This document shows, one piece after another, positions 1-6,862 of a stretch of 6,862 nucleotides of DNA. How positions within the stretch are numbered: position 1 is the first letter of the stretch; each line of letters starts with the position of its first letter. Under the pieces are notes generated by a model. It was not told the origin of the DNA and did no database searches. It saw only the letters and a program-made list of their open reading frames with translations. Where the stretch lies: positions 1 through 6,862 of the IMG/VR virus record IMGVR_UViG_3300000268_000080, one strand, 5' to 3'. This DNA comes from a virus. A program made the position numbers and the translations under genes.

Positions 1-99
1 AATAAAAATGAATTACATGGTTTGGTATTTCTTCATTTTTGGATTTGTAGCTCACATGTACTTCATTTACCGAATTATTAGAAGGATTCAGCGCAATGG
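1..99. repeat. Terminal direct repeat, copy A (identical to 6764-6862); marks circular closure of a 6,763-nt genome
   Basis: Base-by-base comparison: nt 1-99 (aataaaaatgaattacatgg...gcgcaatgg) are identical to nt 6764-6862, offset 6763. Confidence 0.95.
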
Positions 100-130
100 C
101 TTACGTTTGCGAATCGTTAGAGATTATTAA
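8..130 (+). CDS. 40-aa small hydrophobic protein; positional analogue of the pVII/pIX minor coat class
   Basis: ATG 8 to TAA 128-130, below the ORF-track size cutoff. Translation: MNYMVWYFFIFGFVAHMYFIYRIIRRIQRNGLRLRIVRDY, a hydrophobic N-half with a basic C-tail. In the circular molecule AAGGA (6757-6761) lies 9 nt upstream of the ATG (6771). It sits between the ssb-like gene and the major coat gene, as gVII/gIX do in Ff phages. Confidence 0.5.
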   Translation: MNYMVWYFFIFGFVAHMYFIYRIIRRIQRNGLRLRIVRDY

Positions 131-284
131 TGGCGTTCAAACGTGTGCTAACTGGGTTCTTCAAAACTCAATTCTGCCCGTATTGACTCTTGAACAAGCA
201 TCCATGCTTGGGGGTTCTTACTGGTTTGTCCTTGTCGTAGCAAAGGGCTTTAGAGAATTAGGCTACATGATAAAAAAACATTAA
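96..284 (+). CDS. 62-aa small protein with a C-terminal hydrophobic segment; second pVII/pIX-position minor virion protein candidate
   Basis: ORF-track ORF. AAGGA (82-86) lies 9 nt upstream of ATG 96. It has a hydrophobic GGSYWFVLVVAKGF segment and a basic end (IKKH). It overlaps the preceding 40-aa ORF by 35 nt in another frame and lies directly upstream of the major coat gene. Confidence 0.55.
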   Translation: MAYVCESLEIINGVQTCANWVLQNSILPVLTLEQASMLGGSYWFVLVVAKGFRELGYMIKKH

Positions 285-306
285 CCCAAACATTAGGAGA
301 TTTCTC

Positions 307-582
307 ATGGGTCAATATTTAACTCCAGAAGTAAAGCAAGAAATTAAAAACCAAACTGCTCATATGTCTTTCTTTGAGCGTAATCAAGCTCGCTTTGCTG
401 TCGCAACTCTTTTAAGTCTTGGTGCTGTTGGTTCTGCCAATGCTGCTATGCCTGACATTGATACTGCTGACATTCTTACTTATATCGGCTTGCTTGTAGC
501 TGCTGTTGCAACTGTCGGTTCTGCCTTTTTGATGGTTTATCTTGCAGCAAAAGGAATCAAAGCTATTCGAGCTGCGTTCTAA
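307..582 (+). CDS. Major coat protein precursor (pVIII-like)
   Basis: AGGAG (295-299) lies 7 nt upstream of ATG 307. The signal-peptide end is ...LSLGAVGSANA|AMPD. The predicted 45-aa mature peptide is AMPDIDTADILTYIGLLVAAVATVGSAFLMVYLAAKGIKAIRAAF. It has an acidic N-terminus (3 Asp), a hydrophobic core and a basic C-terminus (K,K,R), the hallmark of inovirus major coat proteins. Confidence 0.85.
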   Translation: MGQYLTPEVKQEIKNQTAHMSFFERNQARFAVATLLSLGAVGSANAAMPDIDTADILTYIGLLVAAVATVGSAFLMVYLAAKGIKAIRAAF

Positions 583-591
583 TCAATCAAT

Positions 592-669
592 CATAAGCGC
601 ACCTGCTAAAACAAAGTAGCGCAGCGAGGGCGCGCAGCGAGCAACTTTTTTTAGCGGGGGTGCATTATG
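592..669. other. GC-rich island forming a long imperfect hairpin; candidate post-coat-gene terminator and/or ssDNA structural element
   Basis: Nested complementary arms: CATAA 592-596 / TTATG 665-669; GCACC 599-603 / GGTGC 659-663; GCTAAAA 605-611 / TTTTAGC 649-655. The core has a tandem direct repeat GCGCAGCGAG (619-628, 632-641). An inner GC hairpin pairs 620-622/637-639 and 624-626/633-635, followed by T7 (646-652). Local GC content is far above the rest of the genome. Confidence 0.45.
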
Positions 670-742
670 GCTGAAATTTTTCCTTACTTCGTCCTACTCT
701 TATTTGTTGTAACTGGCAACATTCTTTTTAAGTGAGCTGGTT

Positions 743-2410
743 ATGAGATTTTTTAAATATTTATTTTTTTCATTTTTTCTTTTCTTTTCTCTTAATGTTC
801 ATGCTGTTCAGCAGTGTTCTTATATTGTTGAATCCTATGGTTCACACGCCAGAACGGCAACTGATAGTATTTCTGCTGCATGTTCCGCTGCCAAGCAAAG
901 ATATAGCGAGGCTTATCATGCTAGTTGTGGAGTTCCTGCGGGTTCTACTCAAATTTGGATGGGTGATATCGTTATTGGTTATACCTCATGCCAAGAGGTT
1001 AAATGTACCGCCGGTGAAACCGCATTCTTAGACGGTTATATTACTTCTCAATCTGCTTTTGCTCCTACATCTGTTTGTTATTCCGGTTGTACTTATTCAA
1101 ATGAATCCGGTGGTACTGCTTTTGATACTCCAAATGGTAATTTGTCTTGGGGCTTTGATGCCAAAAAAACCGGTGCAACCTGTTCCACTGATACTCCAAA
1201 AGGTGAAGATAAACCCAATGGTGACGGCACTGGTGGCGATGGTGGTGACGGTGGCGGTGGTGATACTGGCGGTGGTGGCTCTGATGGTGGCTGTACTGAA
1301 ACTGGTTCAACTGCTAACTGTAATGGCGGTTCAGGTGGTGGCGGTGGCGCAGGTGCCGGAGGTGGTGCAGGCGGTGGCGGTGGTGGCTCTGGTGGTAAGG
1401 GCGGTGATGGTGGCGTAGGTGGTGCAGGCGGCCAAGGTGGAAAGGGCGGTGATGTAACTATCAATATGACTCCAGTGGTTAATGCTGTTAATAATATGTC
1501 TTCTGCTATTGTTAATAAATTAACTTCTGTTTCATCCCAGATTACTAGTGCTATCAGTGACATGAAAACATCAATTACTGATGCTATAGGTATTACAAAT
1601 TCAAAAGTACAAGCCGTAAAAGATGAAGTTGCTGCACAGGGACAACAAACCCGTTCTGAAATTGCAAAAAATACTGCTGCTGTAAACTCTGTAAAACAAT
1701 CAGTTGATGCCAATACTGAAGCTGTTAACGACATGAAATCTGCTGTTAATCAGCAAACAAAAGCCATTAATGATGTAAAAGCTTCTGTTGATGCTAATAC
1801 AACTGCTATTGGTGCTGTTAAATCTGCTGTTGATTCGGTTAAATCTGCCGTTGATGCTGTTGCCTCTAAAATAGATAAAGCTGCTGCTGATACAGTCGAA
1901 GCTGTTAATGCCAGTGCCAATAAAATCACTTCCGCAATCTCTGCCGATGGCAATGCTACCCGTCAAGCAATTAATGCTGATGGTGATGCAACCCGTAAAA
2001 CAATGACTGAACAGGGCGATGCAACCCGATCTGCAATCAATGCCAATGGTCAAAAAATCACGGATGCTGTTAAAGAAAATACAGAAGAAACAAAAAACAC
2101 CAATTCACTTCTTGAAGATTTAAAAGAATGGCTCACTGGTGAAGAACATTCAGAAAATTCTGATGGTGTTATTGATGTTGTAGAGCAAAATGTTGATATG
2201 AATCTTCGTTCTGACCATCTTAACGCTAATGCTTCATGTCCTGCGCCTTTACAGATTCCAATTAAACTATTTCAAACTCATACCATTGAATATAAATATG
2301 ACACTTTTTGTTGGGCTGCTTCTGTAGCTCGGCCTTGGATTATTTTCGTTGGAATGCTCGTCGCTTTCCTTATTGTTACTGGTCAATACAGGGGTGGTGC
2401 AAGTGATTAA
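743..2410 (+). CDS. pIII-like minor coat / host-adsorption protein (555 aa)
   Basis: Signal peptide MRFFKYLFFSFFLFFSLNVHA|VQQ. An 8-Cys N-terminal domain is followed by a long Gly-rich linker (aa 160-237). A C-terminal hydrophobic anchor (PWIIFVGMLVAFLIVTG) sits near the end. It is the largest ORF and lies between the major coat and pVI-like genes, the canonical gene III position. Confidence 0.8.
   Translation: MRFFKYLFFSFFLFFSLNVHAVQQCSYIVESYGSHARTATDSISAACSAAKQRYSEAYHASCGVPAGSTQIWMGDIVIGYTSCQEVKCTAGETAFLDGYITSQSAFAPTSVCYSGCTYSNESGGTAFDTPNGNLSWGFDAKKTGATCSTDTPKGEDKPNGDGTGGDGGDGGGGDTGGGGSDGGCTETGSTANCNGGSGGGGGAGAGGGAGGGGGGSGGKGGDGGVGGAGGQGGKGGDVTINMTPVVNAVNNMSSAIVNKLTSVSSQITSAISDMKTSITDAIGITNSKVQAVKDEVAAQGQQTRSEIAKNTAAVNSVKQSVDANTEAVNDMKSAVNQQTKAINDVKASVDANTTAIGAVKSAVDSVKSAVDAVASKIDKAAADTVEAVNASANKITSAISADGNATRQAINADGDATRKTMTEQGDATRSAINANGQKITDAVKENTEETKNTNSLLEDLKEWLTGEEHSENSDGVIDVVEQNVDMNLRSDHLNANASCPAPLQIPIKLFQTHTIEYKYDTFCWAASVARPWIIFVGMLVAFLIVTGQYRGGASD
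1220..1453 (+). repeat. Low-complexity GGT/GGC-rich coding tract (Gly linker of pIII)
   Basis: It encodes GDGTGGDGGDGGGGDTGGGGSDGG...GGSGGGGGAGAGGGAGGGGGGSGGKGGDGGVGGAGGQGGKGGD. Its antisense reading creates the spurious Pro-rich 213-aa ORF in the track. Confidence 0.9.
1943..2074 (+). repeat. Four tandem 33-nt (11-codon) units inside pIII
   Basis: In-frame units are ADGNATRQAIN / ADGDATRKTMT / EQGDATRSAIN / ANGQKITDAVK. GATGCAACCCG recurs in units 2 and 3. A further 21-nt tandem (GTTAAATCTGC[T/C]GTTGAT) lies at 1817-1855. Confidence 0.85.
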
Positions 2411-2678
2411 AGTTCTTCTTATTGTCCTAAACATATTTCTTTCTAGTGGCGTTAAAAGACTTCTTACTGGTGCGGGTCTTGGTCTTGGCACTTTTGTTGT
2501 TTCACAAACAATGTTTTCTAGTCTTTTAGGTCATGTCAAAAATAATTTTGGTGCTCTTGGTGACATCTTTTGGTTGATCTCTCTTTCCGGCCTTGATGTT
2601 GCGCTTAGTTTAGTAATTTCAGGCATTTCAATACGTCTAACAATGAATGCCGGTAAAATATCATTGAGGAAATTATAA
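2403..2678 (+). CDS. pVI/Ace-like small integral membrane virion protein (~91 aa)
   Basis: The frame is open from 2349, but the GTG at 2403 has AGGGG (2390-2394) 8 nt upstream. That GTG overlaps the pIII stop (GTGATTAA), suggesting translational coupling. The product is very hydrophobic with 2-3 predicted TM segments (VIKVLLIVLNIFL..., GLGLGTFVV..., DIFWLISLSGLDVALSLVISGISI) and a basic tail. It lies between the pIII-like and pI-like genes, the gene VI / ace position. Confidence 0.7.
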   Translation: MIKVLLIVLNIFLSSGVKRLLTGAGLGLGTFVVSQTMFSSLLGHVKNNFGALGDIFWLISLSGLDVALSLVISGISIRLTMNAGKISLRKL

Positions 2679-2679
2679 A

Positions 2680-4227
2680 ATGTTATATGCAATTATTGGC
2701 AAGCCTGGACAAGGTAAATCATATTTTGCTGTTACTAAAATGTATGAACAGCAAGAATTAAATAATCATAATATTCAAAAGAATGTAGAAATCCATTTTG
2801 AAAATAAAGCCATTTTAAAAGATCGTGGTATTGATCTTGATACTCGTACAGAATTTACTTTTCCCCGTGAATCAAAAGAAGATGATCAAACCGTTATTCG
2901 TGATTTTACCTTTAGATTGAATCATTTCTTGAAAATTGAAGATGAAGAACAGTTTGAAGATTATTTTGAAATGTATCTTCTCTACAATGATTTTATAAAA
3001 CACATTAATTCTGTTCATGGCATTACTTTGGCTTTCCTCCTTCCAGTACGCCAAATTTATTCTGATATTAACGGCCTTAAAATCAATGGAATTAAATTTG
3101 CACCGCGTGACTGGAGAGAAACCCCATTGGGTTCAATTCTCTATATTGATGAGATCCGCAGAAAACCGCCTTATAACTATGATGGAAACCGACCTTCTAC
3201 CGATCCAATCATTTTAGGTATGTCTGAGGTTCGGCATTCCGATAAAGATGTTTATTTGATTTCACAGGACGCAGAAGATTTAAATAAATCCCTTCGTCAA
3301 TTGGTTGATAAAATGTATTTTATCAAACGTCCTCCTCAGAATGTTGCAGCTTGTGCTATTTATACCTTTGACCAGTGGATTGGTCGTCCTCGTGCTGCTG
3401 CTGATTCAAAACGTGAACCTAAAAAATACGTAGATCATCAAATTCTTACTTATAAGAAAAAGTATTTCGCGCTTTATAAATCTGCTTCTAGTCACGTTTC
3501 TATGAAACGCTCTATTAGTTGGAAAGTCTTTGCTTGGATACTCTTTTTTATTCTTCTTGTATTAGGTGTATTGGTTGGCCTTGCTAAGATTCCAATTTTT
3601 CAATACTTCGGTTCTGCTATTTCTCAAATGACTGGTAGTGAATCAAATAGCCTTGAAGGTTTAAAAGGTGCGCCTATTCCTGACGCTTCTAAAAATCCTG
3701 AGATTCAAAATAAGGTCAATTCTTGTATGGAACAATTCGGTTGGACTGAACAACAATGTTTAGAGGCTGCCGATCCAACTGTACGTGACCAACGTCATGA
3801 AGAATTACAGCAACAAACTAGAAATGATATGGAAACAATTGTCTTTGATTACAACCCATCAAAACCTTTTAATGATATGTCTACAATGATTTCTTATGAG
3901 CCGACTGCAAAACCTGTCTTTAGTGGTTGTATGAAAAAACATGGCCGTTATGTTGCTTATACCCAGCAAGGAACTATTTTAAAAAATGTTTCTCAAGATG
4001 ATTGCAGACGTATCATAGAGCAGGGTGATAGACCGTTTAATTATTTCCAACAACCACAACAACAGGTTCAACAACCACCAACACAACAAGAAAATCCCGC
4101 TTATCAGAAGTCTTATCTTGAAAATCTTGCTCGTTTAGATGCTCAAGCTGCTCATTCTAGTAGTCAACAGAGGGAACGGAGTGTTCCCGAACAACAGTTA
4201 TCTAATCCTGAAACTTCTTCTCTCTGA
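2680..4227 (+). CDS. pI / Zot-family morphogenesis (assembly) ATPase, 515 aa
   Basis: N-terminal P-loop MLYAIIGKPGQGKS (Walker A, nt 2698-2721) and Walker-B-like ILYIDE. A single TM segment, WKVFAWILFFILLVLGVLVGLA, is encoded at nt 3520-3585. GAGGA (2666-2670) lies upstream, and ATG 2680 follows the upstream stop by 1 nt. The gene order matches gene I / zot. Confidence 0.9.
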   Translation: MLYAIIGKPGQGKSYFAVTKMYEQQELNNHNIQKNVEIHFENKAILKDRGIDLDTRTEFTFPRESKEDDQTVIRDFTFRLNHFLKIEDEEQFEDYFEMYLLYNDFIKHINSVHGITLAFLLPVRQIYSDINGLKINGIKFAPRDWRETPLGSILYIDEIRRKPPYNYDGNRPSTDPIILGMSEVRHSDKDVYLISQDAEDLNKSLRQLVDKMYFIKRPPQNVAACAIYTFDQWIGRPRAAADSKREPKKYVDHQILTYKKKYFALYKSASSHVSMKRSISWKVFAWILFFILLVLGVLVGLAKIPIFQYFGSAISQMTGSESNSLEGLKGAPIPDASKNPEIQNKVNSCMEQFGWTEQQCLEAADPTVRDQRHEELQQQTRNDMETIVFDYNPSKPFNDMSTMISYEPTAKPVFSGCMKKHGRYVAYTQQGTILKNVSQDDCRRIIEQGDRPFNYFQQPQQQVQQPPTQQENPAYQKSYLENLARLDAQAAHSSSQQRERSVPEQQLSNPETSSL

Positions 4228-4302
4228 TTACAGGCTCCCATTTGATTTAGATCGGGAGATACAGAGCATCCCGAATGGGTGCGAACTTTGTGAGGTGAAT
4301 TA

Positions 4303-4404
4303 ATGAGATCAGATAATATTCGATGTACTTTATGTGGCAAGATTATTCAAAAGCGTTTTATGGTTTCTCATCTTTTGAAATATCACCCTTTTTATACTTT
4401 TTAA
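4303..4404 (+). CDS. 33-aa micro-ORF with a C2H2-like zinc-knuckle spacing
   Basis: GAGGTGA (4292-4298) lies just upstream of ATG 4303, and the stop is TAA 4402-4404. Translation: MRSDNIRCTLCGKIIQKRFMVSHLLKYHPFYTF, which gives C-x2-C-x11-H-x4-H. It is too short for the ORF track. Confidence 0.4.
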   Translation: MRSDNIRCTLCGKIIQKRFMVSHLLKYHPFYTF

Positions 4405-4415
4405 TGATTTTAGTA

Positions 4416-4443
4416 TTGCTTAAATCATGATTTATGATATATT
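4416..4443 (+). promoter_or_regulatory. Sigma70-like promoter for the 105-aa orphan gene
   Basis: -35 TTGCTT (4416-4421), 16-bp spacer, extended -10 TGaTATATT (4435-4443). It lies about 30 nt upstream of ATG 4473. Confidence 0.5.
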
Positions 4444-4480
4444 TAAATCATGAATTAAATAGGAGATAAATCATGATTCA
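4421..4480. promoter_or_regulatory. Three 14-bp palindromic operator-like boxes (TAAATCATGATTTA family) at 23-bp spacing
   Basis: Box 1 is 4421-4434, TAAATCATGATTTA, a perfect palindrome that fills the -35/-10 spacer. Box 2 is 4444-4457, TAAATCATGAATTA (13/14), just downstream of the -10. Box 3 is 4467-4480, TAAATCATGATTCA (13/14), and contains the ATG of the 4473 ORF. Centre-to-centre spacing is exactly 23 bp twice. Confidence 0.6.
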
Positions 4481-4790
4481 TAAAAAAATGACTGTTGGCG
4501 CTGCAATTGAATATCTACAGACAACTAAATGGTCTGAAACTGTCTATCAGGTTGTTGAGGTTTCTGATATGTCAAAATTAGATGATGAAGGAATCCCTAT
4601 AGAAGATAAGTATCAAGTTGTTGTTTATCTCGAAGATGTTTCTGATCCTGATTATTGTGTTCAGATTCATTTTGTAAAGGCTCGTGATGGATCACCTTTT
4701 TATTTTCGTTCTTTGGATCGTGTTTTTAATGATATTTTGTTTAAACGTGATTCTACTTTGAAGATGTTAGGAAATCGTCTACCTTTTTAA
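4473..4790 (+). CDS. Hypothetical 105-aa soluble, mildly acidic protein (orphan cargo gene)
   Basis: AGGAG (4461-4465) lies 7 nt upstream of ATG 4473. There is no TM segment and no motif I recognise. I count 17 D/E versus 13 K/R. It has its own promoter and operator array. Confidence 0.75.
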   Translation: MIHKKMTVGAAIEYLQTTKWSETVYQVVEVSDMSKLDDEGIPIEDKYQVVVYLEDVSDPDYCVQIHFVKARDGSPFYFRSLDRVFNDILFKRDSTLKMLGNRLPF

Positions 4791-4805
4791 TTACTGGAGA
4801 GATCA

Positions 4806-4898
4806 ATGATTGATAGGGTTCGTTTAGTTGGTTATGTGCTTGGCATGTTTTTAATGTTTTTGATGTTATGTCTTTTCGAGTATTTAAAAATTCTATAA
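4806..4898 (+). CDS. 30-aa single-TM micropeptide
   Basis: TGGAGAGATCA (4795-4805) immediately precedes ATG 4806. Translation: MIDRVRLVGYVLGMFLMFLMLCLFEYLKIL, ending at TAA 4896-4898. Confidence 0.4.
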   Translation: MIDRVRLVGYVLGMFLMFLMLCLFEYLKIL

Positions 4899-4917
4899 AT
4901 TTTCATTGGAGAGATCA

Positions 4918-5007
4918 GTGGGTAATTGCTTTATGTGTGGGATCGTTAAACTACAACTTATTATTGCTTTGATTATAGGTGTATTTTATTGGGTTTTTTC
5001 TTATTAG
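4918..5007 (+). CDS. 29-aa single-TM micropeptide (GTG start)
   Basis: The identical 11-nt TGGAGAGATCA (4907-4917) immediately precedes GTG 4918. Translation: (M)GNCFMCGIVKLQLIIALIIGVFYWVFSY, ending at TAG 5005-5007. An alternative internal ATG lies at 4933. Confidence 0.35.
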   Translation: MGNCFMCGIVKLQLIIALIIGVFYWVFSY

Positions 5008-5041
5008 GCTGATTTCTTGTAGTTTCAATTTTTGTAATATG

Positions 5042-5069
5042 TTTACAGGTTTACTTTTGTATGTATAAT
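5042..5069 (+). promoter_or_regulatory. Sigma70-like promoter upstream of rep
   Basis: -35 TTTACA (5042-5047), 16-bp spacer, consensus -10 TATAAT (5064-5069). Confidence 0.45.
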
Positions 5070-5073
5070 AAAA

Positions 5074-5103
5074 AAGCCTAAAGAATTGGCGTTCTTTAGG
5101 CTT
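5074..5103. other. Perfect 12-bp stem / 6-nt loop hairpin: candidate (+)-origin or packaging hairpin; in - orientation it looks like an intrinsic terminator
   Basis: AAGCCTAAAGAA (5074-5085) pairs perfectly with TTCTTTAGGCTT (5092-5103); the loop is TTGGCG. CGTTCTTTA (5090-5098) is identical to 9 nt of the f1 (+)-origin nick region (..CACGTTCTTT^AATAGTGG..). On the - strand the stem is followed by TTTTTTATTATA. Confidence 0.5.
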
Positions 5104-5135
5104 CGGTGTCTAAACGTATTTTAAATCGGTGTCTA
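5103..5135 (+). repeat. Two direct 10-nt iterons TCGGTGTCTA, 23 bp apart, between the hairpin and the rep start
   Basis: The copies at 5103-5112 and 5126-5135 are identical. The second overlaps the possible GTG start (5129) of rep. Confidence 0.6.
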
Positions 5136-6208
5136 CGATGAATCAAGTTGTTTCTTCTTTGGATCTTAGTAATCCTGTTGATGTTTCGTTTTTAAAAAAT
5201 CTTTCTGCTGCTTCTTCGCGCGTTTCTGCTAAAAATACAAAATCTGAATTACGTGACACTGGGCTTGTCTCTATATTAACAAGTGACACGCCTTATAAAA
5301 TAGAACTACCGTCTCAAGATTATTTACGTTTAAAGCGGTTACAAAAGTCTGTTCGTGTTACGGCTGAGGTTGTTGAAGAAAAAATAAAGGCTTTCAATCA
5401 AAGAATGAAGCCTGCAATGGTTACTTTGACTTATCGTCCTGACGTTTCTTGGTCTGCAAAGCATGTTACTGACTATGTAAAGTGTGTTAAGCAATGGGCT
5501 AAAAGAAAGGGTCTTGCTGTTCACTATATTTGGGTTATGGAGCTAACTAAAAAGGGTGTCCCTCATTATCATGTCATGTGGTGGATTCCTAAAGGTCATA
5601 CAATGCCTAAAGCTGATAAACAAGGATGGTGGAAACATGGCATGACTAATAGTGTTTGGGCGCGTAAACCTGTTGGTTATCTTTGTAAATATACATCTAA
5701 GGGTATTGATCCACAGTCTTACGGTAAAATTCCTAAAAATGCTCGTTTGCATGGTTCTGGTGGTTTAACTGTTCCAATGCGTGTTTCAAAAATATGGTTA
5801 TGTTCCCCGTCTTGGGTGCGTGAATTATTTGATATTAATAATGGTGTAAAAAAGTTTGGTTGTTATTGGGTGGATCGTGTCACCTTAAAAGGTTTTTCAT
5901 CCCCTTGGCATTTTGATCATAATTCTCGTGTTTTGAAGTGGAAGGGTTTCGGTTCTGTCGTTGATATAACCGAATTAGATAAATATAAGCAAATGTACCC
6001 CAATAAGATGCCTGTTTCAGTATCTATGTTTTATCACTATGATCATGATCAATTTTCTTTTGCATCTGATCTTTATTCTATTGATTCTAAAAATATTCCT
6101 GCTTTTGATATGCAGAATTATTTGTCTTATTCTCGCCCTGCTGGATGTGATGATGATTTTGCTATTTTTGATTATTTCCTTGATGTTTGTGAAGAATTAC
6201 ATTTCTAG
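5129..6208 (+). CDS. Rolling-circle replication initiator (HUH endonuclease superfamily), 359 aa
   Basis: Motif 1 is AMVTLTY. Motif 2 (HUH) is PHYHVMWW, with H-Y-H at nt 5564-5572. Motif 3 is GYLCKYTSK, with two Tyr in Y-x3-Y spacing (nt 5678-5692), as in phiX174 gpA-type Reps. The start is ambiguous: GTG 5129 (track) or ATG 5138 (GGTG 6 nt upstream). Confidence 0.85.
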   Translation: MSTMNQVVSSLDLSNPVDVSFLKNLSAASSRVSAKNTKSELRDTGLVSILTSDTPYKIELPSQDYLRLKRLQKSVRVTAEVVEEKIKAFNQRMKPAMVTLTYRPDVSWSAKHVTDYVKCVKQWAKRKGLAVHYIWVMELTKKGVPHYHVMWWIPKGHTMPKADKQGWWKHGMTNSVWARKPVGYLCKYTSKGIDPQSYGKIPKNARLHGSGGLTVPMRVSKIWLCSPSWVRELFDINNGVKKFGCYWVDRVTLKGFSSPWHFDHNSRVLKWKGFGSVVDITELDKYKQMYPNKMPVSVSMFYHYDHDQFSFASDLYSIDSKNIPAFDMQNYLSYSRPAGCDDDFAIFDYFLDVCEELHF

Positions 6209-6394
6209 TTCTCCATATTTATTAACAGAGATACTTTTTATACCTATGTCTAAAATTTTGTGAGCTATTTCACTATCTTTGAGCGGTTCTTTATTCATAG
6301 ATATTAATATTTTATTAATTTCTATGCATTTTTTTCGAAGATTTTCGCTCTGTACTTCTTTGATTCGTAACATTTTGATCATTTTTACTACCAT
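6197..6394 (-). CDS. 65-aa small regulator candidate, possibly ribbon-helix-helix (Arc/CopG-like); only minus-strand gene
   Basis: The - strand reads TACAGGAGTAAACAAA-ATG, placing AGGAG 8 nt upstream of the ATG (complement of 6392-6394). The product is K/E/I-rich with a pattern of short beta (MLRIKEV), helix (SENLRKKCIEINKILI), turn, helix (KDSEIAHKILDIGIKSI). The xSEIxxxxL segment resembles RHH helix B. It faces a repeat-rich intergenic region. Confidence 0.6.
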   Translation of the reverse strand: MVVKMIKMLRIKEVQSENLRKKCIEINKILISMNKEPLKDSEIAHKILDIGIKSISVNKYGELEM

Positions 6395-6395
6395 T

Positions 6396-6470
6396 TTGTT
6401 TACTCCTGTACCAAATATACTTGTTTACAACATATTTTTTTTATGTTTACATATTTCAAAGTAAACATAA
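6396..6470. promoter_or_regulatory. Divergent control region with four TGTTTAC boxes, including a perfect 10-bp inverted repeat
   Basis: TGTTTAC occurs at 6397-6403, 6422-6428 and 6444-6450, and inverted as GTAAACA at 6461-6467. TTATGTTTAC (6441-6450) and GTAAACATAA (6461-6470) form a perfect inverted repeat with a 10-nt spacer. The region lies between the - strand regulator and the + strand ssb-like gene. TTTACA -35-like hexamers are present, but I could not pin down a convincing -10 in either direction. Confidence 0.6.
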
Positions 6471-6483
6471 ATGGTAATTTAGC

Positions 6484-6750
6484 ATGGATATTTTCAAAGC
6501 TGTTTTAATTGATGTAAAGACCGGTGATTTTAATAATTTAGTATTTGAATCAACTAAGTATGATATGGGGCTTGGTAAAGATGTTCCTTGTTCTGTTCAA
6601 ATTATGGTTTCAAAAGAACATGAGTTTATGATTCCTGAATATAAAAAATATATTGGTAATGAGTTTACAATACCTGTACGTTTACTTGTTACAAAGAAAC
6701 AAACAATTATGCGGATTACTGGTGCTGATGGTCTTCCATTTGTTGCTTAG
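6484..6750 (+). CDS. 88-aa gene-V-position protein; putative ssDNA-binding protein
   Basis: The ORF is clean, soluble and lacks a TM segment. Its size matches Ff gVp (87 aa). It is the first gene of the structural block, directly upstream of the small coat ORFs. The assignment rests on size and synteny only, and the SD is weak. Confidence 0.55.
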   Translation: MDIFKAVLIDVKTGDFNNLVFESTKYDMGLGKDVPCSVQIMVSKEHEFMIPEYKKYIGNEFTIPVRLLVTKKQTIMRITGADGLPFVA

Positions 6751-6770
6751 GCTAAAAAGGAATAATAAAA

Positions 6771-6862
6771 ATGAATTACATGGTTTGGTATTTCTTCATT
6801 TTTGGATTTGTAGCTCACATGTACTTCATTTACCGAATTATTAGAAGGATTCAGCGCAATGG
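6771..6862 (+). CDS. 5' part of the 40-aa ORF (duplicate of 8-99), truncated by the window end
   Basis: ATG 6771 has AAGGA (6757-6761) upstream. The sequence is identical to nt 8-99, and the complete copy is 8-130. Confidence 0.5.
   Translation, partial: MNYMVWYFFIFGFVAHMYFIYRIIRRIQRN

Follow-up and report, generated by a model that had tools for sequence, protein, structure and literature searches.

The inovirus genome of IMG/VR virus record IMGVR_UViG_3300000268_000080, analysed here over positions 1 to 6,862 (the window, 6,862 nucleotides (nt)), raises the question of what occupies the short interval between its zot gene and the control region of its rep gene. From the letters of the DNA, it had been proposed (the original prediction) that this interval is an uncharacterised cargo module of four open reading frames (ORFs), in which a 105-amino-acid (aa) protein and two membrane peptides could form a toxin/immunity or superinfection-exclusion set. 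It was found that positions 4214–5024 are a cargo slot of variable content, bounded by zot on one side and by the decayed remains of a dif-like phage attachment site (attP) on the other, upstream of the rep promoter, and that the slot is a mosaic of independent, separately exchangeable units and not one operon-like set. The four predicted ORFs are all present on the + strand, with the start of ORF-D moved to a GTG at 4918. The original inventory was incomplete, as it had overlooked a non-coding element at 4214–4294 and the attP remnant at 5008–5024. The parts of the slot are as follows.

4166–4227, + strand: final ~20 codons of zot, where the block in common with the Acinetobacter indicus prophage L007 has its left recombination breakpoint
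4214–4294, + strand: conserved structured non-coding element of ~80 nt, which starts just before the zot stop codon
4303–4404, + strand: ORF-A (from the ORF list), 33 aa, basic (pI 9.9), with a C2H2-type zinc-knuckle motif
4404–4472, + strand: promoter/operator region of ORF-B, from repeat analysis and alignment
4473–4790, + strand: ORF-B, 105 aa, predicted cytoplasmic, identical to WP_168369485.1 (hypothetical protein, A. indicus)
4793–4898, + strand: leader ACTGGAGAGATCAATG (4793–4808) and ORF-C (4806–4898), a 30-aa membrane micro-protein
4905–5007, + strand: leader ATTGGAGAGATCAGTG (4905–4920) and ORF-D (GTG 4918–5007), a 29-aa membrane micro-protein
5008–5024, + strand: what is left, at the XerC-arm end, of a decayed dif-like attP (GCTGATTTCTTGTAGTT, versus GACTGATTTCGTATAAT in relatives); right end of the slot

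A variable slot downstream of zot

The slot lies between the end of zot at 4227 and the rep promoter at 5042–5069 (rep start at 5129), is less than 0.8 kb in size, and encodes proteins that are all ≤105 aa. Comparison with related inoviruses, which had been suggested as a check on the module, showed that the block is variable, with different micro-ORF sets in different phages. The sibling phage L011, which is 95–98% identical to the window, does not contain ORF-C, and the gene for ORF-B was present in 0 of the 20 IMG/VR relatives recovered through Zot. Window positions 4166–4792 were 95.7% identical to positions 7694–8320 of L007, although the two Zot proteins were only 27.7% identical overall. 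The idea of an accessory, variable slot downstream of zot was thus borne out, and the slot ends where the attP of the relatives lies.

In the relatives, two intact dif-like sites, inverted with respect to each other, mark this right end. For the window itself, the adjacency to attP is observed as the remnant at 5008–5024 only, the intact site pair being seen in the relatives; L011 carries GACTGATTTCTTGTATT at the place of the remnant, and neither a XerC nor a XerD arm of a dif-like site was found in the window at up to 2–3 mismatches per arm. In L003 and L007–L010, the sequence GACTGATTTCGTATAATGTAGCC...ATTATGTTA begins within 10 nt after the stop codon of the ORF-B gene, with a second, inverted copy 60–150 nt on. 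In L007, the left junction of the prophage is the dif-like site after this gene; L008 used another, simpler site of the dif-like kind for its integration, located between its replication and coat modules. By kind, L007 appears to be integrated through the inverted-pair site and L008 through the single site. Several relatives have both kinds in one genome: the inverted pair after the slot and, where the replication module meets the coat module, a lone site of canonical appearance. The positions of the sites are given below.

L007: 8328–8425
L008: 4166–4326 and 102/7150
L010: 7049/151 and 2985
L072: 3871/3941 and 6019

In the divergent relative L016 (1903–2751), a 282-aa tyrosine recombinase takes the place of the dif-like site after a homologue of the 105-aa protein.

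None of the four slot ORFs gave a significant match in Pfam, PHROGs, PADLOC or NCBIfam, and no recognisable defence system, toxin or virulence factor was found in the slot with these four resources. Profile searches detected no xafT homologue.

The 105-aa gene moves together with its promoter

The gene for ORF-B belongs to a cassette of 387 nt (4404–4790), which comprises promoter, operators and gene. Its boundaries were constant, from 4404/5 to 4789/92 in at least nine contexts. On ~10 phage backbones, only the stretch 4404/5–4789/92 is shared with the window, at a DNA identity of 86–96%, and the backbones that bear the cassette have replication proteins of four non-homologous families (Rep_1, Rep_trans, Phage_CRI and REP_ORF2-G2P). 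ORF-B was 87–100% identical where Zot was only 25–44% identical; conversely, the Zot proteins of L008 and L012 were 84% identical, but their ORF-B proteins, which belong to different subfamilies, were 42% identical.

When 1.84 billion representatives were searched, the ORF-B family fell into ~45 clusters at 90% identity, and at 50% identity into 4 that were genuine. All relatives that could be placed were in inoviruses, between zot and the replication/regulatory module. No homologue was found by tblastn in the reference phages (including M02) or in plasmids, and a scan of IMG/VR yielded only one further cassette, L059. On comparative grounds, ORF-B is an accessory protein.

The neighbours of the cassette differ from phage to phage. 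It stands without any membrane micro-ORF in L003 and L007–L010, in which attP follows directly; it stands without any dif-like site in the window, L002, L005, L012 and L014; and membrane micro-ORFs lie downstream of it in L004, L005 and L012. In L009, the cassette is located between two directly repeated XerC-arm-like sites. The cassette was also considered as a pdif module, a reading that was rejected because its edges are an operator half-site and a stop codon and not Xer sites. Since the cassette is attP-adjacent in five relatives, a role of ORF-B as a XafT-like accessory factor of Xer was considered; this was rejected as well, as the cassette occurs elsewhere without a dif-like site and no DUF3653 match was obtained.

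In L003, a 10-nt direct repeat, AAGACTGATT, flanks the cassette (6787–6811 and 7199–7215). The left copy is the end of a 44-aa micro-ORF, and the right copy is the start of the attP flank and ends inside the XerC arm. Because the cassette is flanked by AAGACTGATT, its insertion in L003 by short-homology recombination, and not by Xer cleavage, is suggested.

ORF-B is a conserved orphan protein

The variable codon positions of ORF-B were distributed as 16/6/39, the ratio of non-synonymous to synonymous substitution rates (dN/dS) was 0.04–0.2, and the length of the protein was kept. All 13 differences from the L007 gene were synonymous. Judged from these patterns, ORF-B is a coding sequence under purifying selection. 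The charge is unevenly distributed along the protein: residues 1–69 carry a charge of –7.3 and are more variable, and residues 70–105 carry +2.8 and are nearly invariant.

The AlphaFold2 (AF2) model of ORF-B is confident and shows a single domain with the predicted order strand-helix-strand-strand-strand-helix-strand, a predicted local distance difference test (pLDDT) score of 91.6 and a predicted template modelling (pTM) score of 0.83. With close homologues only, the pLDDT was 56; it rose to 91.6 when the divergent subfamilies were added. The best Foldseek matches of this model were at E ≥ 0.2 and TM ≤ 0.38 in the PDB, and at E ≥ 0.036 and TM ≤ 0.46 in BFVD. Profile searches of the protein gave no match in PDB sequences, Pfam, PHROGs, PADLOC or NCBIfam. 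ORF-B is therefore described here as representing an orphan family whose predicted fold is unmatched. The original prediction had recognised no motif that assigns a function within the slot, and the same was true here of every ORF by sequence searches, as well as of the ORF-B model by Foldseek.

A promoter covered by palindromes

The following elements were identified upstream of and at the start of ORF-B.

4404–4410, + strand: half-site ATGATTT, the left edge
4416–4421, + strand: –35 element TTGCTT of the predicted promoter
4423–4432, + strand: palindrome 1, AATCATGATT, in the –35/–10 spacer
4435–4443, + strand: TG-extended –10 element, (TG)nTATATT, 16 nt after TTGCTT
4446–4455, + strand: palindrome 2, AATCATGATT with one mismatch, in the transcription start region
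4461–4465, + strand: Shine-Dalgarno sequence AGGAG, which precedes ORF-B
4469–4478, + strand: palindrome 3, AATCATGATT, which covers the ATG of ORF-B

The gene had been said to have a dedicated, repressible-looking promoter. This promoter is real and conserved: in the window it reads TTGCTT-16 nt-(TG)nTATATT, and its palindromes, at 23-nt spacing, were invariant in 10 contexts. The three AATCATGATT palindromes and the half-site stand in a 23-nt phase (repeat family D1). No further AATCATGATT site was found in the window outside those at 4423, 4446 and 4469, and the phages that bear the cassette have no copy of the palindrome outside this promoter. The 10 aligned contexts include homologues that are only 37–42% identical in protein, so that the promoter and operators are more conserved than ORF-B itself. 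Invariant in all ten were the left-edge TGATTTT, the TTG of the –35 element, AATCATGATTT, the –10 element, AATCATGA, the G of the Shine-Dalgarno sequence and AAATCATGA at the start codon. Two forms of the –10 element were seen, a perfect TATAAT that lacks the TG and TATATT/TATCTT preceded by a TG, and such a pattern is what a functional promoter would be expected to show.

When JGI metagenomes were scanned for the triple palindrome, six loci were obtained: three copies of the cassette promoter and three unrelated simple tandem repeats. In one of these promoter copies (L093), the ORF behind the promoter belongs to the ORF-B family; the two other promoter contigs have a full fourth palindrome in place of the left half-site. 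A scan of the genome collection with the double palindrome gave ~35 matches in unrelated taxa, which is consistent with chance, and none of them was in Acinetobacter. Because the array is conserved and confined to the cassette promoter, the cassette can be regarded as a closed regulatory unit.

The palindromic operators overlap the promoter of ORF-B itself, as would be expected of a self-repressor, and self-repression by ORF-B is most likely, being the simplest reading of the palindrome array. In such a mechanism, three to four AATCATGATT palindromes covering the –35/–10 spacer, the start region and the start codon would allow tight negative control by ORF-B, and its basic, invariant C-terminal third (residues 70–105) would be the candidate DNA-contacting part. 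The invariance of this segment fits operator contact but proves none. It was also considered whether palindromes 2 and 3 could pair in the RNA and so mask the start codon; the folding energy of this hairpin, –6.5 kcal/mol, was not significant (z = –0.7), and the idea was set aside.

Alternatively, the array could be bound by a host transcription factor, with the cassette being a lysogenic-conversion gene under a host signal. The palindrome is invariant though the protein has diverged to ~40%, which would be easy to understand if the binder were a conserved Acinetobacter protein, and ORF-B is acidic and has no recognisable DNA-binding fold. However, no Acinetobacter species-representative genome contained two AATCATGATT sites at the 23-nt spacing, and the array was found in metagenomes only in copies of the cassette promoter, apart from the unrelated simple tandem-repeat DNA. 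AATCATGATT is not known to fit any regulator motif; a Fur box and an FNR box were considered, and the half-site order appears to suit neither. Binding by a host factor is the main alternative to self-repression, albeit an unlikely one.

A second alternative starts from the observation that the non-coding part of the cassette is more conserved than the protein. Its conserved 70 nt might primarily be a cis-acting structure in single-stranded DNA (ssDNA), such as a complementary-strand origin or a packaging hairpin, with the ORF being secondary. Positions 4396–4490 folded as ssDNA better than shuffled sequences did (z = –2.9, 1 of 200), and the slot corresponds to the intergenic region of Ff. But this folding stability follows trivially from the repeated palindromes, and the cassette-free relatives must replicate and package without the 70 nt. 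Moreover, the –35 element, the –10 element with its TG-versus-TATAAT trade-off and the Shine-Dalgarno sequence are at canonical distances, and the strong purifying selection on ORF-B with its kept length would not be expected of a secondary ORF. A primarily structural role of the 70 nt is highly improbable, and self-repression by ORF-B is retained below as the preferred reading of the array.

Membrane micro-proteins with a shared leader

Both ORF-C and ORF-D score as strongly hydrophobic: over 19 residues, the Kyte-Doolittle maximum was 2.2–2.4 (a hydropathy scale, not a topology predictor). ORF-D has an N-terminal CFMCG and a C-terminal aromatic cluster, VFYWVFSY. Its start was placed at GTG 4918 and not at TTG 4906, because the corresponding codon is an ATG start in the homologues from six other contigs. 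The original prediction had described the pair as two tandem, twin transmembrane peptides of ~30 aa. The size and the strong hydrophobicity were confirmed, but the peptides are not twins: they are unrelated in sequence, and the only part that they have in common is a leader of 14–16 nt, TGGAGAGATCA(A/G)TG (repeat D7).

This leader, with the 16-nt motif ACTGGAGAGA-NNN-(A/G)TG before both ORF-C and ORF-D, was found to be widespread. In the inovirus loci that were fetched, it precedes at least 11 unrelated micro-ORF families of 28–62 codons, and its occurrences are nearly all on the coding (+) strand, in the slot after zot. The leader-tagged families include single-pass membrane peptides, a zinc-knuckle protein of 53–57 aa, and a protein of 44–46 aa with a 3′ end that overlaps attP. 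The deletion in L011 spans exactly from leader to leader and removes the ORF-C unit.

The ORF-D peptide is 79–97% conserved in L004, L005, L011, L072, L073 and L083, and tblastn with it against the reference phages gave nothing significant. Since zot is immediately followed by ORF-D, with no cassette, in L072, L073 and L083, it appears that ORF-A, the cassette and ORF-C of the window were inserted between zot and ORF-D. An ORF-C-like peptide (3 of 30 residues differ) was indexed in 53 blocks of the contig collection, and 24 contigs were read. Window positions 4792–4920 were 90% identical to a dif-adjacent array in chromosomes of 2.8 Mb.

This chromosomal array (L085–L090, ~5700–6450; CP183903.1, CP183899.1 and others) contains three leader-tagged membrane micro-ORFs and a 51-aa ORF, with the ORF-C-like peptide in the central position. 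Its neighbours are the chromosomal dif site and type VI secretion genes, and phage structural genes are absent from the vicinity. From its gene content, the array looks like a degraded Xer-integrated element that kept its cargo only.

These distributions bear on the proposal that ORF-B, ORF-C and ORF-D work together as one toxin/immunity or superinfection-exclusion set. In the window they probably form one transcription unit, with no terminator between them, and membrane micro-ORFs are also found downstream of the cassette in L004, L005 and L012. However, the micro-ORFs downstream differ between contexts, and the units occur independently of one another: the cassette is followed directly by attP in L003 and L007–L010, L011 does not contain ORF-C, ORF-D is found without the cassette in L072, L073 and L083, and ORF-C-like peptides are found without it in the chromosomal array. 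The proposed set was left unsupported because its partners are not constant, and a joint function of the three proteins seems quite improbable. Since each unit is found without the others, they are better regarded as independent cassettes.

The position of ORF-D directly after zot in L072, L073 and L083, together with its 79–97% conservation across different backbones, also admits the reading that ORF-D, and perhaps other micro-ORFs, are not cargo but morphogenesis accessory proteins like the small hydrophobic pVII/pIX type. However, ORF-D was present in only 3 of the 20 Zot relatives, it sits among shuffled leader-tagged cassettes, and candidate pVII/pIX-like ORFs already exist upstream of the coat gene (8–130 and 96–284). 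A morphogenesis role is regarded as improbable, and the independent-cassette reading is kept for the micro-proteins.

ORF-A and a conserved non-coding element

ORF-A is preceded by a Shine-Dalgarno sequence, GAGGTG, and contains the motif C-x2-C-x11-H-x4-H. The spacing of this motif agrees with the zinc-knuckle-like peptide that had been proposed, but a significant zinc-finger profile match was not obtained: the only hit, zf-BED, was at E = 0.044 and 14.3 bits, compared with a cut-off of 20.6. In PHROGs, only the sub-threshold phrog_6283 was hit (E = 0.0025), and tblastn against the reference phages gave nothing significant. The amino acids of ORF-A are identical in L007 and L011, with one synonymous difference in 102 nt. 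It is plausible that ORF-A is coding, this one synonymous change being the sole coding evidence. Other zinc-knuckle micro-ORFs (53–57 aa, CxxC...HxxxxH) recur in the slot of relatives.

The element at 4214–4294 has a core of CTGATTAC-AAGCTCCC followed by the hairpin GCATCC-CGAAT-GGGTGC (4266–4282). The hairpin shows compensatory changes at three pairs and was unbroken in 14 of 14 copies. The element matched 102 plasmid records, 101 of them from Acinetobacter, at 82–88% identity, all in unannotated DNA. In all 9 plasmid copies with a readable neighbourhood, it lies ~380–460 bp upstream of repM in the same orientation; these copies include one in a 2.3-kb plasmid with repM as the sole gene, one in pXBB1-2 and five in one 28-kb cointegrate. 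Among the phages, L003, L004, L007–L009, L011, L012 and L014 have the element, whole or in part, either behind zot or immediately before the cassette. An Rfam search of the window gave no match for the element and nothing relevant.

A reasonable guess is that the element would be a host-recognised replication signal, e.g. a priming site for complementary-strand synthesis. It was also considered as an origin of transfer (oriT) of the MOBQ type, which is unlikely, because the element lies upstream of repM and not between mob genes, and is present in relaxase-free 2.3-kb plasmids. Whatever its role, it is a cis feature common to phages and small resistance-carrying plasmids.

A motif, GAGTGTCTAC, lies just upstream of the 80-nt element in plasmids and in L014. 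It is similar to TCGGTGTCTA, a direct repeat that occurs in the window at 5103–5112 and 5126–5135, 23 nt apart, and straddles the rep start codon. These repeats may be Rep- or origin-related sites.

An explanation for the slot

The explanation that we favour overall, with a confidence that is evenly balanced, is an exchangeable cargo slot which carries a self-repressed, host-directed ORF-B cassette and membrane micro-proteins of the kind of PfsE, an exclusion protein compared below. The units would be swapped by recombination at short conserved joints, namely the 3′ end of zot together with the non-coding element, the leader common to the micro-ORFs, and the flank of attP. The target of ORF-B would most likely be the host cell (in superinfection exclusion or anti-defence, for instance) and not phage replication or assembly, because the cassette works across four Rep families and divergent Zot proteins and is dispensable in relatives. 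ORF-C and ORF-D would be inner-membrane effectors of the PfsE kind, by analogy only.

Several points weigh against this explanation. The operator does not co-vary with ORF-B across the subfamilies, an observation that a conserved host factor would explain just as well. With a pI of 5.05, ORF-B is acidic overall and would be an unusual repressor, and no DNA-binding domain (helix-turn-helix (HTH), ribbon-helix-helix, AbrB etc.) was found in it by Pfam, NCBIfam or PDB profiles or by Foldseek at TM > 0.5. No sequence or fold result points to a particular host target of ORF-B. The AF2 model rests on an alignment of 33 sequences, and its fold is called unmatched with respect to the PDB and BFVD only. 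Finally, PfsE has no sequence similarity to ORF-C or ORF-D by BLASTP.

Joined together, the parts lead to a broader proposal, which we put forward tentatively and consider doubtful as a whole. The slot might belong to an Acinetobacter inovirus micro-gene cassette system that has not been described before, made up of mutually unrelated, leader-tagged genes of 28–62 codons and a self-repressing effector cassette with an unmatched predicted fold, which would be shuffled between unrelated phages and chromosomal dif islands via leader and dif-like sites. ORF-B would then be a new host-directed factor (an anti-defence protein or a pilus/competence inhibitor), and the 80-nt element would be a portable host-recognised priming site.

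Filamentous phages alter host behaviour mostly through the few accessory genes that they carry. Acinetobacter inoviruses have a slot downstream of zot like that of Vibrio inoviruses, filled only with very small genes, and genes of this size are filtered out by published surveys. The orphan ORF-B family stays nearly unchanged under selection while the surrounding phage is replaced. ORF-B, ORF-C and ORF-D are thus defined candidates for superinfection exclusion, pilus/competence control and anti-defence in a clinically important genus.

The virus genome and its probable host

By the ORF list and profile matches, the window contains a complete inovirus gene set.

307–582: coat protein gene (ORF list and profile searches)
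743–2410: gene for a pIII-like protein (ORF list and profile searches)
2349–2678: DUF2523/pVI gene (ORF list and profile searches)
2680–4227: Zot/pI gene (ORF list and profile searches)
5042–5069: rep promoter, strong, with 11/12 consensus positions, upstream of the rep start at 5129
5129–6208: gene for a HUH Rep of the ORF2/G2P type (ORF list and profile searches)
6197–6394, minus strand: small gene (ORF list)
6484–6750: gene for an 88-aa protein (ORF list)

Positions 1–99 and 6764–6862 form an exact terminal direct repeat of 99 nt. Since both ends are identical, the window is taken to be a circular assembly with a true length of ~6763 nt. A near-identity search of the whole window against the reference phages gave no match, and the best Zot relative in the reference set was that of Acinetobacter phage M02 (34%). 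At 1201–1500, the Gly-rich linker of the pIII-like protein has a GC content of 57% and a strong positive GC skew, compared with ~30–40% GC in the rest of the window. A 13-bp hairpin at 5073–5104, between the rep promoter and rep, has a T-run on the minus strand only, and so appears terminator-like for leftward transcription.

The window itself is a metagenome contig, and its host is probably Acinetobacter, judging from its relatives. This host is suggested because ORF-B is identical to WP_168369485.1, which is annotated in A. indicus; the identical 105-aa protein was located in a tandem prophage of a 3.12-Mb chromosome. It is also suggested because prophage relatives sit at an Acinetobacter-type dif sequence, ATTTCGTATAATGTATATTATGTTAAAT, and because 101 of the 102 plasmid records that match 4214–4294 are from Acinetobacter.

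Comparison with known systems

In CTXphi, the layout is zot, cargo, attP and regulatory module, with ctxAB as the cargo, and the slot after zot in Vibrio holds cholera toxin and defence systems. The inverted dif-like pair after the slot in the relatives of the window resembles the hairpin attP of CTXphi, and their single dif-like site between the replication and coat modules resembles that of VGJphi. In Vibrio inoviruses of the CTX type, a phage-encoded hypervariable region (pHVR) separates zot from the lysogeny module, and cargo is all that remains in degraded elements (PMC12715192). The slot described here is similar to pHVR and CTXphi in that a variable block lies directly after zot, beside the lysogeny module, and is horizontally exchanged, with a dif-like attP next to it that is intact in the relatives; the degraded dif elements with cargo only can be compared with L085–L090 (PMC12715192). 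It differs from pHVR in its inferred host, Acinetobacter instead of Vibrio, in its size (<0.8 kb, with proteins ≤105 aa and no recognisable defence system or toxin), in that no xafT homologue was detected, and in the decayed attP of the window.

PfsE (PA0721 / Pf1 orf30) is a 30-residue, single-pass inner-membrane exclusion protein with a functionally important aromatic cluster (PMC8764522). ORF-C (30 aa) and ORF-D (29 aa) resemble it in length and hydrophobicity, and ORF-D ends in VFYWVFSY. By BLASTP, Pf1 orf30 gave no alignment with ORF-C or ORF-D at E ≤ 100, and homology as judged by YAWGW was not found. The gene for PfsE lies between the ssDNA-binding and coat genes, whereas ORF-C and ORF-D lie after zot. 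Exclusion micro-proteins of the PfsE kind are characterised by binding of PilC, suppression of twitching and a block of pilus-dependent phage infection.

The pdif modules of Acinetobacter, as described in PMC11705084 and PMC7399989, are small gene units bounded by XerC/XerD sites on plasmids, and like the units of the slot they are discrete and move among Acinetobacter replicons near dif-like sites. The cassette abuts a dif-like site in five relatives, and in L009 it stands between the XerC-arm-like direct repeats. Unlike a pdif module, the cassette of the window is not bounded by XerC/XerD sites, its left edge being an operator half-site; it is absent from plasmids by tblastn, and the flank in L003 ends inside the XerC arm and not at the position of Xer cleavage.

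Anti-CRISPR loci have a strong promoter with inverted repeats that are bound by Aca or by the Acr protein itself. The ORF-B cassette is similar to such loci and to morons, as a small, orphan, acidic protein encoded on a mobile element has its own promoter overlapped by repeated palindromes and is spread between unrelated phages. It differs in that ORF-B has no HTH or Aca-like domain and no PADLOC, Pfam or PDB match, and an anti-defence role is hypothetical here. Among these systems, the Acinetobacter slot is a variant of the inovirus hypervariable cargo region, and what sets it apart is the combination of micro-genes with a common leader and a self-contained orphan cassette.

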